A DNA stretch of 20,344 nucleotides, from assembly GCA_041736305.1 (NCBI GenBank), contig JBGSTX010000073.1, positions 1-20,344 of the forward strand, read 5' to 3'. The stretch comes from Oligoflexus sp. GTDB lineage: Bacteria > Bdellovibrionota_B > Oligoflexia > Oligoflexales > Oligoflexaceae. How positions within the stretch are numbered: the stretch's first letter is position 1; each line of letters begins with the position of its first letter. Position numbers: made by a program. Positions 9,001 to 12,000 of the stretch are shown here, one piece after another.

Positions 9001-12000
9001 GAGATTTTTTAAAAGCAATGGCCAACGATCGGGCAAACACTACATATAAGACGTTCTACGATACAATCATTATCGCCAAATCTGCCATGATGGGCGATTG
9101 GACTAAAGCTGTGAAAGTGAGTGGACCAGCTTTTGATGTTTTGGCAGTGGATCCAATTAATATTCTCTCGCTCTCTGGAACGACGATCGGCTTTCCACTC
9201 AATACCGGGGTGCCCCAGCGCACGATCGCTATGATGGATGCTTGGGTCTGCCCAGCGGAAGAGAAAGATTTTTGTACGCAAAACACTCAGAAAGCGCCGT
9301 TTGCTCGGCCCGGGCTCAGCTTCCATTTCGCAGAAGCTTATGCGCGGGTCGGTGATCGTGCTAAGACCTTGGCCTACCTGCTAGCTGCTCAGGAGGCGCC
9401 TGGATTTGAGAAGTGGCAGCATAAGGAGCTGGTTGAGAAGCCTCTGGCTGATTTGGATAGTTATATGGCTTATTGGGCTAATTTTGGGGAGGATGGGAGC
9501 GCTTTTGATAAGGTCTATGCTAACCAACCCTTTGGTTGTGTTATGTGTCATGGTCGCTGGTAAATTCAAGGAGCCGCCTCTCACTCTGCGTAATCCGCCG
9601 GACTGGCTGCTAATTCATACGTTTCGCTAAATAACTTCTTAGCGAAGCATTTGATTTCGTTGCATTGTAAATATATCGCTAACACATTGACCCCATTGAG
9701 TAATTACGAAGCTCTAAATTTTTCTCACAGAATGACGATGAATCAACTAGCGCGGATTTTCGCATATGCCTAGCAGATAGGAAGAATCAAATGGATCGTC
9801 GTCTTTTCTTAAAGTTTGGATCTTTAGCCGCCGGTACCTACGCCCTCGCTGCTTGTGCTGAAACTCCAGTAAACGACAGGCGACAATTTGGGCCGGCTTC
9901 AGGTGCCAATGTGGAAGGCGAAACACCCGATGATTCCTCGAAAAATCCGGGAGCAACGGCGCTGGCGGGAGAAGTGGTCTATACGCGTGCCGCTCCCGGC
10001 CCTTGGGCTGGGAAAGAAGCAGCCCATCTGCCTAAGCTCACTGTCGTTGACAAAAGGCTGCTCCTAAAAACGGAACATGCGATGACTCCCGAACACTTTA
10101 TCTCGCGTCATCAGCTACGTGATGCCAAAGGCATCATACTCTACGACAGAATTCTAGCCCCTGACGCGGTACCTGAGAGCAAGTTTACCCTCCCCTTACC
10201 TGCTGGACAGACGGTTTCAGCAATGTCGCTTTGCAATTTGCATGGTATGTGGAAAGAGGATTTTCCCATCGCTGATCTCAAGGCAGGTTTTCTAGTGAAT
10301 CCTGTTTATACCCAAGAAAACCCTGGACCTTGGACAGGTAAGGAAGCGGGCCACTTGCCAGCTCTCAAAACAGCGAGAACCCTCGTCAATGGACGCATAA
10401 GCCTGGAAGTCGTGACTAGCCATCCCATGACCCCTGAGCATTATATCTACTCCCATCAGGTTAGAAACTTTCAGGGTGAGACTCTCGCTAAGTCTTATCT
10501 CTCACCTGAAACTGATAAGACCGCCGTAAGCATCATGGAAATCCCGGCGCCGCAGTCTGGTATTGAACTGCTATCCTGCTGCAATCTCCATGGTATTTGG
10601 ATGACGTCGGTTGCCTTTGACGCGCTTTCACCAGTTTATACTGCAGCGGCGCCTGGTCCGGTCGGTGCTCCCGCAGCTCACATACCAACTATAGCCCTGA
10701 CGGATACAAGTGCCGTTGGCGCGCCCAGCCACACGGTTACGGTTACGAATGCGCACGAAATGATTGATGGGACTCACTTCGTTTTTAAGCATCAGGCTCG
10801 CACCGCCGGTGGTGATCTCATCGCTGAACGTTTGCTGAATCCTGCCACTGCAACTACTGCAGTTTCGACTTTCGAAGGCCGGCTCTTCCAAGGCGGTGTC
10901 GGCAAATTTATGATGTACGCCTACTGCAACCTGCATGGGATTTGGAAAGATGAGTTCAACTTCGAACAAATCAATATCCTTTACACCGATACCCCAGGAC
11001 TCGCAGGTGGCGCAGCCGCGACTCATAGACCAATCGTAACTGTCGAGGGCGATAAGATTACTGTGAAGACGGAGCACGCGATGACCGTTGAACACTATAT
11101 TTCCAAGCACCAGATTCGTGCTCTAGATGGTAGCTTAATCGGTGAGAAGAATTTCGCACCTACCGCTGCAGCACCGCTGAGCGTCTATCCAAAAGGCGCC
11201 CTAGCAGGTAATTTTATGGCCTATTCCTATTGTAACTTACACGGTATCTGGAAATCGCCTTTTACTGTCTAAAGATTGCGGTTACTTCCTAATCAGGCTC
11301 CTCCTTACCGGGTGGAGCCCTTTTCCTCGTTCATTTTTCCTTGCATCCCACTAAGCACTTGCCTAACCTTCGGCCTGAAACCTCTTGGGTCCAGGGAGTG
11401 TCCGTGCACGTCAAAATTCTCTCATCTGTGGAAGCTATTGGACGACCGAGCTGGGAAGCGCTCCGAAGCCCCGATTATCCCTTCCATCACTATGCATTCC
11501 TGCAGGCACTGGAAAAAACCGGCAGCGTCGGCCCTGAGAGCGGATGGCAGTTGGCCTATCTGGTCCTCGAAGATGCCGAGGGCGTGCGTGCCGTGCATCC
11601 GAGCTATGTAAAAGCCCATAGCTACGGCGAATACATCTTTGATTGGGAATGGGCCAGGTTCTACAGCCAAAACCAGAGAGCATACTATCCCAAGCTCTTG
11701 AGCGCCACTCCCTTCACTCCGGCTACAGGCACCCGCCTGCTGCTTAGAGCTGATGCGGAAACGTCCGATAAAGAGCTGCTTATTGCCACTGCTCTTCAGA
11801 CCGCCCGGAACTCAAATATGAGCTCCTATCACGCGCTCTTTCTCGAGGAAGATGAAGCCAAGCTCTATCAAGAACAAGGCTGCATGATCCGCCACTCGCT
11901 CCAGTATCACTGGCGAAACGGGGGTTATCGAGATTTTAATGACTATCTCGAAGGCTTCGTCGGCAAGAGACGACGCGATATTGTTCGCGAACGAAAGCGG

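Follow-up and report, generated by a model that had tools for sequence, protein, structure and literature searches.

A predicted lipid-anchored protein with four tandem superoxide reductase domains in an Oligoflexus-like bacterium

Superoxide reductases (SORs) are classically small cytoplasmic enzymes of anaerobes and microaerophiles that reduce superoxide, need an electron donor and release no O2. Lys and Glu near the iron have catalytic roles, an E-K-H motif before the first His ligand is an SOR feature, and the 1Fe-SORs are oligomers of separate chains. The functional analogue for periplasmic superoxide removal, the Cu,Zn-superoxide dismutase SodC, is unrelated in fold and in chemistry, as it acts by dismutation and without a reductant. 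Exported forms of SOR have only been predicted, and our literature searches found no purified TAT-SOR. The TAT-SOR passages of the SORGOdb paper count seven members and describe this predicted class solely as a centre II combined with a Tat signal, which agrees with the statement in the genome-wide survey's note that the SORGOdb paper lists only single-domain Tat-SORs. The word 'tandem' does not occur in that paper, and neither in these passages nor in full-text literature searches did we find a tandem SOR architecture mentioned. Members are predicted, for example, in Geobacter, Desulfuromonas and Desulfovibrio salexigens. A further example comes from a study of a Sulfurimonas MAG, which, in the sections that deal with this protein, lists a 'periplasmic superoxide reductase' with a putative role and names TAT-SOR in a figure legend.

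The protein described here is encoded in the window, which is the whole stretch of 20,344 nucleotides of Oligoflexus sp. DNA that was analysed (contig JBGSTX010000073.1). Its nearest sequence relatives are single-domain TAT-SOR proteins, with which it shares the domain family, a twin-arginine (RR) motif (seen in 68 of 109 single-domain relatives), and the signature Y-T-x3-P-G-x-W-x-G-K-E-x2-H-x-P with an extra His after the third ligand. It differs from them in having four domains rather than one, a lipobox followed by a long tether, and a loop that is absent from two of the four domains, and also in its host, which is an aerobe with three haem-copper oxidases. It appears to belong to the predicted TAT-SOR class as a variant with a novel architecture. 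We consider it probable, though short of certain, that it is an exported, lipid-anchored protein with four SOR-type mononuclear Fe(His)4Cys centres, which arose as an ancient tandem duplicate of a single-domain Tat-signal SOR, and in which domains 1 and 2 (D1, D2) are likely catalytic and domains 3 and 4 (D3, D4) probably differ from them. SOR function, and with it enzymatic activity, is what we infer.

SOR domains, ligands and predicted fold

The gene and the parts of its product are located as follows:

9780..9785, + strand: putative ribosome-binding site AGGAAG, read from the sequence about 6 nt upstream of the ATG
9791..11272, + strand: tetra-SOR gene from the ORF list, 493 codons plus stop, ATG start
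9791..9856, + strand: predicted signal peptide (aa 1-21) and lipobox LAAC with Cys22, from motif matches
9794-9814, + strand: twin-arginine motif DRRLFLK, aa 2-8, from a motif match
9854-9856, + strand: codon of Cys22, the predicted lipidation site in the lipobox LAAC
9857..9970, + strand: disordered tether, aa 23-60 (pLDDT 24-32 over residues 1-60)
9971..10273, + strand: D1, aa 61-161, from the domain HMM envelope; ligands H79, H96, H102, C148, H151; loop W-A-G-K-E-A-A-H
10298..10621, + strand: D2, aa 170-277, from Pfam; ligands H188, H211, H217, C264, H267; loop W-T-G-K-E-A-G-H
10628..10966, + strand: D3, aa 280-392, from Pfam; ligands H297, H322, H329, C379, H382; V-G-A-P-A-A in place of the W-x-G-K-E loop
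10973..11269, + strand: D4, aa 395-493, from VIA-align; ligands H412, H429, H435, C481, H484; loop G-G-A-A-A-T-H

The 493-aa ORF with four SOR units that the survey's note had described, and its Pfam value, were reproduced exactly: PF01880 (Desulfoferrodox) matches in four stretches with 4.4e-37 and 127 bits (cut-off 22.2), the best stretch being D2 (aa 184-272). In a six-frame search, each of the four domains individually exceeded the Pfam cut-off, D3 with 26.8 bits at 10676-10951, and NCBIfam TIGR00332 was matched with 91.8 bits against a cut-off of 61.9. The best sequence match in the PDB links D1 (aa 55-155) to the class III SOR of T. pallidum (1y07) at 7e-8, the same value as in the note, and D2 matches 2hvb at 2.1e-4. 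All four domains contain the ligand pattern H-x-P ... H-x-M-x3-H ... C-x2-H, so that none of the 20 ligand residues is missing; in D3, His2 and His3 stand one residue further apart than in the other domains. That every unit keeps four His and one Cys is thus correct for the window protein (4/4) but not for its paralogue (3/4), in which the first His of D4 is replaced by Glu. This paralogue, at G000:C326:72-1553 on the minus strand, also has 493 aa and is 51% identical by tblastn and 49% by blastp, the latter being the figure given before.

The predicted structure concurs. The AF2 model (pLDDT 82.2), computed without metal, is confident for residues 61-493 and contains four beta-sandwiches behind a disordered signal and tether of 60 residues; with a pTM of 0.58, its inter-domain geometry is not usable. 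VIA-align searches over 48,161 chains gave SOR matches that cover D2, D3 and D4, in each case from predicted models. The top four chains of the whole-chain search were SORs: D2 (model residues 171-276) aligned with 6gq8 (Z 12.4, rmsd 2.1, 96 aligned), and D4 with 1dfx (Z 13.9, rmsd 1.7, 88 aligned), 1y07 (Z 12.7) and 4d7p (Z 12.5). When D3 was folded alone (pLDDT 82.8), the top four of the 48,161 chains were again SORs (Z 10.5-11.2), followed by SoxYZ (9.2).

With the 1Fe-SORs or neelaredoxins of N. equitans (6gq8), Giardia (4d7p) and P. horikoshii (2hvb), the window protein shares the predicted beta-sandwich (Z 12.4-12.5 for D2/D4, 10.5-11.2 for D3), and it also shares the His4Cys pattern H-x-P, H-x-M-x3-H, C-N-x-H-G. 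These enzymes differ in being cytoplasmic and only about 110-125 aa long, and HMMER sets their canonical G-E-K-H against G-K-E-A-G-H of the window protein with a 2-residue gap. Among the 2Fe-SORs, desulfoferrodoxin 1dfx is the best structural match of all; the window protein lacks the extra Cys for an FeCys4 centre. An assignment to desulfoferrodoxin was rejected, as TIGR00320 (dfx_rbo) reached 79.7 bits with a cut-off of 146.9 and an N-terminal desulforedoxin domain is absent.

When the whole chain was compared with the PDB by Foldseek, all that emerged were generic multi-Ig arrays (complement C3, fibronectin, adhesins) with a TM of about 0.15. This is uninformative as to domain identity, and the search was replaced by the wide VIA-align searches. 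One could nevertheless read this result as indicating a structural, Ig-like array at the surface or in the periplasm whose metal sites are vestigial or missing altogether, or a relative of the SoxYZ sulfur carriers. SoxYZ is indeed the next-best fold (Z 9.2-9.4), the ESM Atlas contains clusters in which SoxY/SoxZ and PF01880 models co-match (leads only, with a best score of 0.89 below the guide value of 0.9), and giant proteins with SOR-like stretches but without CxxH exist. We regard this explanation as very improbable, because SORs ranked above SoxYZ in both structure searches, and 19 of the 20 ligand columns are invariant among 12 sequences of about 50% identity, with H412 as the exception. 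Furthermore, the carrier Cys of SoxY/SoxZ sits near the C-terminus. The window protein has Cys only at positions 22, 148, 263, 264, 379 and 481, of which C263 alone is neither part of the lipobox nor a ligand, and a SoxY-type C-terminal Cys motif is therefore absent; the chain ends with ...WKSPFTV, without Cys after C481, and no SoxY or SoxZ Pfam match was obtained at E<=0.01. By sequence, ligands and predicted fold, which all agree, the window protein is a four-fold tandem array of SOR (centre II) domains.

Predicted export signal, lipobox and tether

The twin-arginine signal that had been noted for this protein can be confirmed as a motif, DRRLFLK at residues 2-8, but not by profiles: Pfam TAT_signal did not match the N-terminus even at E<=10, and TIGR01409 reached 10.1 bits (E 0.87) with a cut-off of 16.7. 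The likewise reported lipobox cysteine is found in the sequence as Cys22 of LAAC, a lipobox of the form [LVI][ASTVI][GAS]C located where the predicted signal peptide ends, and the host genome encodes both TatC and LspA. In the family alignment (A1), R3, R4, F6, F9, G10 and C22 are each at least 90% conserved. Of the 11 core members, 10 carry the RR motif, and the remaining one is truncated at its N-terminus.

The failure of both profiles, together with a very short n-region that places RR at residues 3-4, could mean that the N-terminus does not direct export and that the protein is cytoplasmic. We give hardly any credence to this, as the N-terminus fits a consensus of the type S/T-R-R-x-F-L-K and is accompanied by the lipobox, and as the best and the least conserved regions adjoin each other: within the family, mean pairwise identity is highest in the signal region (76%) and lowest in the disordered tether behind it (23%), which is variable in length and acidic or Pro-rich among homologues, with the domains in between at 50-57%. 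Outside the core family, every three-domain relative (3/3) and every other four-domain relative (3/3) has the same layout, with an RR motif and a lipobox-like Cys. From these motifs, the tetra-SOR protein would be periplasmic and lipidated.

Relatives, the Lys/Glu loop and the probable roles of the four domains

The core family is very rare, with 15 proteins in 5.8 billion clusters, the four-domain homologues are 36-52% identical, and the named close homologues of the window protein come from Oligoflexales MAGs. Representative sequences matched 327 times at E<=1e-3, 66 times at E<=1e-10 and 5 times at E<=1e-30. The survey's note had given this last count as well, and it was also right that none of 13 congeners has a match. 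For its figure of 3 in 131 genomes of the phylum, our count at E<=1e-5 is 5 of the 131, the source genome included, and three of these (G000, the source genome, G059 and G015) have multi-domain forms. Only one other protein with four motif copies among the best 150 had been reported, which is too few: P0016 and P0017 have four domains each, and P0020 has seven complete units.

Indeed, independent tandem SOR arrays of 2, 3, 4 and 7 domains recur in the databases across several lineages, with P0017 (four domains, from a Myxococcota MAG), P0016 (four, one unit lacking the Cys), P0011-P0015 (three to four) and P0020 (seven) as members. They have tandem centre-II domains in common with the window protein and are apparently undescribed in print, and their domains fall outside the core D1-D4 clades and are therefore of independent origin. 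Databases thus contain the architecture more often than the literature does. A further kind of protein, exemplified by P0073, is giant and has many SOR-like stretches, yet no CxxH. In the tree of the domains, D1, D2, D3 and D4 each form their own clade with a support of 0.96-0.99, and the pairing of D1 with D2 and of D3 with D4 is weakly supported (0.27 and 0.8), so that we claim no sequence of duplication events. The clades and the per-domain identity of 50-57% suggest that the core four-domain architecture is ancient and has been maintained.

The residues before the first His are KEAAH in D1, KEAGH in D2, APAAH in D3 and AAATH in D4, and the canonical Glu-Lys pair directly before this His (E-K-H) is absent from all four domains. 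The earlier observation that Ala or Gly takes the place of the Lys beside the first His does not set D1 and D2 apart: single-domain relatives have K-E-x-x-H, with Lys at position −4 in 95 of 109, and by this comparison the shift of the Lys to −4 is a class trait of TAT-SOR-like proteins, to which D1 and D2 conform. Within the core family, Lys at −4 is found in 10/11 D1 domains (the remaining one has Lys at −1) and 7/11 D2 domains, and Glu at −3 in 10/11 and 11/11, respectively. In D3 and D4, both counts are 0/11, and the entire W-x-G-K-E loop is lost in all 11 core members, leaving neither Lys nor Glu; of the 44 core domains, only 22 have the loop Trp. Despite this loss, D3 and D4 are as conserved as D1 and D2. 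Five of the 11 core members, the paralogue among them, have Glu in D4 at the position of H412.

Since D1 and D2 keep the W-x-G-K-E-x-x-H loop that supplies Lys and Glu near the iron, it is likely these two domains that are catalytic. In D3 and D4, the ligands are retained under equal constraint but this loop is missing, which makes a different mode of action probable: they may be slower, or unassisted, or act as relay centres. The description as four SOR units thus holds for the tandem array, but four equivalent catalytic sites are not fully supported.

Equivalence of all four domains nevertheless deserves consideration. The array would then simply raise the number of superoxide-reducing sites per anchor, achieving by covalent linkage what the cytoplasmic SORs achieve as oligomers, and the intact ligand sets and equal conservation of all four domains fit this idea. 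In P0011-P0015, K-E at −4/−3 is kept in 11 of 15 near-complete domains, 9 of which read K-E-A-G-H, and the other four (D1 of P0011-P0013, D2 of P0015) have the Lys without Glu at −3. A natural SOR without this Glu, that of N. equitans, appears in the reference list of SORGOdb, and its structure is solved (6gq8). The complete loss of the loop from D3 and D4 in 11/11 core members and the replacement of the first His of D4 in 5/11 speak against equivalence, and the separate clade of each position argues for position-specific roles. We therefore regard four equivalent sites as unlikely and prefer two likely catalytic and two differing domains. The contrast between D1/D2 and D3/D4, together with the His-to-Glu variant of D4, offers a ready-made mutational series for bioinorganic study, and raises the question of which role Fe(His)4Cys centres have without the catalytic Lys/Glu loop.

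Gene surroundings, host and proposed working

Two features lie upstream of the gene:

8598..9563, + strand: 321-aa protein, from its translation, whose N-terminus resembles a signal peptide and whose C-terminal part contains the motif CVMCH (CxxCH)
9621..9648, + strand: terminator-like hairpin between this haem-motif gene and the SOR gene, with a 10-bp stem including 4 GC pairs and a T-rich tail

The hairpin is a consensus match only, as 3 such hairpins were found and 3.0 are expected from shuffles. The GC content is 0.49-0.51 around the SOR gene and 0.45-0.55 across the window, without a compositional anomaly that would point to horizontal transfer. The 321-aa CxxCH protein, for which neither a Pfam family nor a PDB match was found, is a candidate local electron donor, but it is doubtful that it belongs to the SOR system. 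No CxxCH protein is encoded near the SOR copies of G059, Pfam searches of the G059 neighbour genes gave no redox proteins, and an all-against-all blastp of the ORFs of five loci (the window, L003, L010, L011 and L005) showed that only the SOR genes are shared. Because it is not conserved, we do not claim the CxxCH protein as a partner.

The host is an aerobe whose genome has 3 haem-copper oxidase genes, 5 CCP_MauG matches, two Cu,Zn-SODs of the SodC type and one Fe/Mn-SOD. With three SODs already encoded, it is not evident why the cell would require a periplasmic SOR. Such a lipid-anchored SOR with four centres, in an aerobe that has SODs, would pose the questions of what reduces an SOR outside the cytoplasm, and why superoxide should be reduced rather than dismutated in the periplasm.

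The wealth of SODs, the lack of a conserved reductase partner, the missing canonical E-K-H and the His-to-Glu variant of D4 would all be compatible with a protein that is no SOR in vivo and whose Fe(His)4Cys centres have a different redox role in the periplasm, for example in transferring electrons, or in reacting with or sensing NO, O2 or peroxide. This appears quite improbable to us, as D1 and D2 retain the Lys/Glu loop that is typical of the whole Tat-SOR-like class, and as the relevant passages of the SORGOdb and Sulfurimonas MAG papers establish no such role for PF01880 centre II domains.

For an exported SOR, we propose the following course. The protein would fold and take up Fe(II) in the cytoplasm and be exported in the folded state by Tat, for which the motif is present. 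It would then be lipidated at Cys22 and cleaved by LspA, consistent with the lipobox and the LspA gene, and would hang in the periplasm on a disordered tether of about 38 residues. There, superoxide would be reduced to H2O2 at the Fe(II) centres, which would then regain electrons from donors in the periplasm, with c-type cytochromes as the most plausible candidates, and the H2O2 might be passed to the cytochrome c peroxidases of the genome.

As a more specific and tentative version, for which we see only a modest chance, the domains may divide the labour: D1 and D2 would reduce superoxide, and the loop-less D3 and D4 would have acquired a new task within the same chain, the entry or relay of electrons from periplasmic c-type cytochromes, thereby replacing the separate rubredoxin or desulforedoxin on which cytoplasmic SORs depend, so that the protein would be an envelope-tethered four-iron sink in an aerobe. 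If this were true, the protein would, together with the independent arrays of 2 to 7 domains, represent an unrecognised class of multi-centre extracytoplasmic SORs. The D4 centre of the paralogue would, under such a division of labour, be a His3-Glu-Cys site.

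Four superoxide-reductase domains and the N-terminus

The tetra-SOR gene is a single open reading frame of 493 codons with an ATG start, preceded by an AGGAAG about 6 nt upstream, and its product carries an array of four superoxide reductase (SOR) units, D1 to D4, that is real and far beyond chance. The sole Pfam family in the protein is Desulfoferrodox (PF01880; 4.4e-37, in four separate stretches), and it passes the NCBIfam model TIGR00332, 'desulfoferrodoxin ferrous iron-binding domain', with 91.8 bits versus a cut-off of 61.9; with the full-length 2Fe-SOR model TIGR00320 it reaches 79.7 bits, under the cut-off of 146.9. 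A PDB sequence search gave 17 distinct sequences at E<=1, 16 of them SORs or desulfoferrodoxins, led by the SOR of T. pallidum (1y07, 7e-8, residues 55-155). Together with the direct reading of the ligands, these matches bear out the four units with full ligand sets that the genome-wide survey's note had described, and its Pfam and T. pallidum values were obtained again. Beyond the ligands, the only cysteines are C22 and C263.

9791-11272, + strand: tetra-SOR gene

Iron ligands of the four domains, read directly from the sequence
D1: H79, H96, H102, C148, H151
D2: H188, H211, H217, C264, H267
D3: H297, H322, H329, C379, H382 (one additional residue between His2 and His3)
D4: H412, H429, H435, C481, H484

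In the AlphaFold model (overall mean pLDDT 82.2), residues 61-493 are confident and residues 1-60 disordered (pLDDT 24-32). A whole-chain Foldseek search found generic multi-Ig arrays only (TM ~0.15). In a Foldseek-independent alignment of the model against 48,161 PDB representatives, the best four were all SORs, and SoxYZ was the next fold (Z 9.4). As D3 has no PDB sequence match of its own, it was modelled alone from an 11-sequence alignment (pLDDT 82.8, pTM 0.78), and the same four SORs led (Z 11.2, 10.6, 10.6 and 10.5), with a modest margin over SoxYZ (9.2). The structure searches did not extend to D1, which carries the top sequence match to a solved SOR. As judged by sequence, ligands and predicted fold, the tetra-SOR is a member of the centre-II SOR superfamily.

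Best structural matches of the whole model
1dfx: Z 13.9, rmsd 1.7 Å, 88 aligned, on D4
1y07: Z 12.7, rmsd 2.2 Å, 92 aligned, on D4
4d7p: Z 12.5, rmsd 1.8 Å, 85 aligned, on D4
6gq8: Z 12.4, rmsd 2.1 Å, 96 aligned, on D2

At the N-terminus, residues 2-8 (DRRLFLK) match the twin-arginine consensus and residues 19-22 (LAAC) the lipobox pattern. A family alignment of 12 sequences shows R3, R4, F6, F9, G10 and C22 with conservation of 90% or more. Mean pairwise identity is 76% in the signal region, 23% in the tether between Cys22 and D1, and 50-57% in the four domains. Pfam TAT_signal gave no match even at E<=10, and TIGR01409 scored 10.1 bits, under its cut-off of 16.7. The twin-arginine signal and lipobox claimed in the note therefore stand as matching, conserved motifs and not as HMM hits, and the call of export rests on motif and conservation. 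Genes for TatC and for the lipoprotein signal peptidase LspA are both found in the genome, and export and lipidation are well-motivated predictions. A cytoplasmic reading, which the sub-threshold HMMs would allow and the conserved N-terminus speaks against, and a structural reading, which the conserved ligands speak against, share the small probability left by the other explanations.

Two kinds of domain

In SORs, a lysine assists catalysis, and a glutamate is a dispensable sixth ligand. The note had pointed to an Ala or Gly in place of the Lys before the first His ligand; comparison shows a non-Lys residue there to be a trait of the class. Among the 109 single-domain relatives, of which 68 have an RR motif, 95 have a Lys at -4 and 44 a Glu at -3, which gives the signature Y-T-x3-P-G-x-W-x-G-K-E-x2-H-x-P. 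HMMER aligns the canonical G-E-K-H of the P. horikoshii SOR with G-K-E-A-G-H of the query across a two-residue gap. This makes for a longer loop, in which the charged pair is swapped in order and not lost. The core family, that is, the 11 four-domain members including the query, shows that the domains differ in this loop; its Trp is missing from 22 of the 44 core domains.

Lys and Glu before the first His in the core family
D1: Lys 11/11 (10 at -4; at -1 in the paralogue, D-K-H); Glu at -3 10/11
D2: Lys at -4 7/11; Glu at -3 11/11
D3: Lys 0/11; Glu at -3 0/11
D4: Lys 0/11; Glu at -3 0/11

D3 and D4 are conserved as much as D1 and D2, which argues for specialisation and not decay. We consider it probable, with some reserve, that the tetra-SOR is an exported SOR with non-equivalent domains. 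That its four sites are equivalent, as the four full ligand sets might suggest, is unlikely in view of the Lys and Glu counts. In D4, the first His is replaced by Glu in five of the 11 core members (the paralogue, P0003, P0005, P0006 and P0007); the paralogue has AEKP versus THRP, so that the claim that it keeps all ligands holds for three units. Among SOR-type centres, such a His3-Glu-Cys site would stand out as unusual. A non-SOR redox role, with which such a site would fit and the SOR-type loops of D1 and D2 would not, is less likely still. D1 of the paralogue has a canonical-looking D-K-H-V-P.

Genomic setting and a proposed mechanism

The tetra-SOR gene appears to stand alone. The terminator-like hairpin upstream matches the consensus, at a frequency no higher than in shuffled sequence. 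The 321-aa protein, which matched neither Pfam nor PDB, has a signal-like N-terminus and, as its sole recognisable feature, a C-terminal CVMCH haem-c motif; with the oxygenase it may form an exported oxygenase/cytochrome pair. Close to the N-terminus of the oxygenase lies an RR motif (RRSFLK), for which Pfam TAT_signal stays under its cut-off (E 0.032).

2-2668, - strand: 889-aa ORF that extends past the window end; Pfam gives no family at E<=0.001
6666-8555, + strand: RPE65-family carotenoid or stilbene-type oxygenase (Pfam 4.9e-43)
8598-9563, + strand: 321-aa protein, 43 nt after the oxygenase
9621-9648: terminator-like hairpin between the 321-aa protein gene and the tetra-SOR gene

No neighbour family was common to the five loci compared, and no CxxCH protein was found near the tetra-SOR copies of G059, a genome of the same family and another genus, in agreement with the note's remark that the c-haem neighbour is not conserved. 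The genes around the G059 copies encode unrelated proteins, namely ADP-ribosyltransferase-like lipoproteins, a WG-repeat protein, a helicase and a ribosome hibernation factor. Directly downstream of one G059 copy, on the same strand, lie two adjacent lipoprotein-like ORFs of 368 and 430 aa with domains of the ADP-ribosyltransferase exoenzyme type (L010:6092-8516(-); Pfam 6.7e-11 and 3.4e-8).

The host is an aerobe and is fully equipped to deal with ROS; its genome encodes three haem-copper oxidase subunits I, two Cu,Zn-SODs, one Fe/Mn-SOD and five CCP/MauG-family genes. The four SOR-type domains with their ligands, the conserved Tat-like/lipobox N-terminus, the disordered tether and the position-specific conservation are the firm basis of the mechanism that we propose. 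The protein would load iron in the cytoplasm, leave folded by Tat export and be lipidated at Cys22; D1 and D2 would reduce superoxide, and D3 and D4 might act as slower sites or relay centres. Periplasmic c-type cytochromes could re-reduce the centres, and cytochrome c peroxidases could clear the H2O2.

Relatives, age and recurrence of SOR arrays

A word-indexed search of 5.8 billion clusters (length window 271-863 aa) found 15 proteins at E<=1e-3 among 8000 candidates scored: 11 with four domains (450-522 aa, query included) and four of 316-398 aa. NCBI lists three as 'desulfoferrodoxin family protein [Oligoflexales bacterium]' and JGI one as 'superoxide reductase'; the family assignment is therefore not new. 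Of 1.84 billion representatives, searched exhaustively, 327 matched at E<=1e-3, 66 at <=1e-10 and, as counted before, 5 at <=1e-30. A pattern-based scan with one genome per species yielded 40 loci, of which only L027 and L028, both from the same MAG with the title Oligoflexales bacterium, span residues 1-493. The paralogue at C326:72-1553(-) is the only one in the genome and shares the reported 49% identity (blastp; 51% by tblastn). All seven PF01880 matches of the genome lie inside these two genes, so that it has no classical cytoplasmic SOR. In the phylum, 5 of 131 genomes match at E<=1e-5, this genome included (3 of 83 high-quality genomes); the earlier count was three. Multi-domain forms were found only here (two copies), in G059 (two copies) and in G015 of the same order (three domains). 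None of 13 congeners matches, as noted before, some of these genomes being just 72-86% complete.

A domain HMM built from the query's own four units, and hence biased toward it, matched 162 of the 163 collected proteins at least once (one match in 106, two in 27, three in 10, four in 15, five in 2, six in 1 and seven in 1). In a FastTree phylogeny (LG+gamma, 102 columns, 233 near-complete domains), the domains of the 11 core members sort by position into four clades, D1 to D4 (support 0.984, 0.959, 0.979 and 0.988); the four-domain layout is therefore older than the divergence of the family, with each position retained since. The architecture is ancient, and it is not unique. P0018 (162 aa), a single domain with a poly-Ser tether and a near-identical signal peptide (MNRRQFFKFGSLAAG...C), falls inside the D1 clade; it represents either the lipoprotein's ancestral form with one domain or a gene call that was cut short.

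Tandem arrays outside the core family are independent of it: P0017 (Myxococcota MAG) has a duplicated two-domain unit, P0016 four domains with the Cys lost from one, and P0020 (1163 aa) seven near-complete units with the full ligand pattern in all. 'One other with four motif copies', as the note had it, understates how common arrays of SOR domains are. The nearest class is the predicted TAT-SOR, a single centre-II domain with a twin-arginine signal; the tetra-SOR lacks the canonical E-K-H, has the class-specific variant in two of four domains and falls outside the desulfoferrodoxins proper. No description of tandem arrays was found in the SOR literature searched, including that on TAT-SOR and periplasmic SOR; titles and abstracts gave nothing relevant on lipoprotein-type SORs or desulfoferrodoxins and, among the matches listed, no paper on an SOR of Oligoflexia or Bdellovibrionota. 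New are the four-domain lipoprotein architecture with its two types of centre, the variant with Glu in place of His, the occurrence in an aerobe, and the finding that SOR domains are arrayed in tandem repeatedly, in several lineages.

Many SOR-like stretches also occur in very large proteins: P0019 (907 aa), P0042 (2675 aa; a dinoflagellate transcriptome by source name), P0127 (2343 aa) and P0073 (6147 aa). CxxH motifs are numerous in P0042 and P0127 and absent from P0073, which, with its 22 matched stretches, therefore looks like an SOR-like fold arrayed without ligands. In the ESM Atlas, the SoxY/SoxZ and Desulfoferrodox Pfam models match the same members in clusters of 148-284-aa proteins, mostly from Myxococcota and Pseudomonadota (scores 0.76), which hints, as a lead only, at a sequence-level tie of the SoxYZ carrier fold to the fold of exported SORs.
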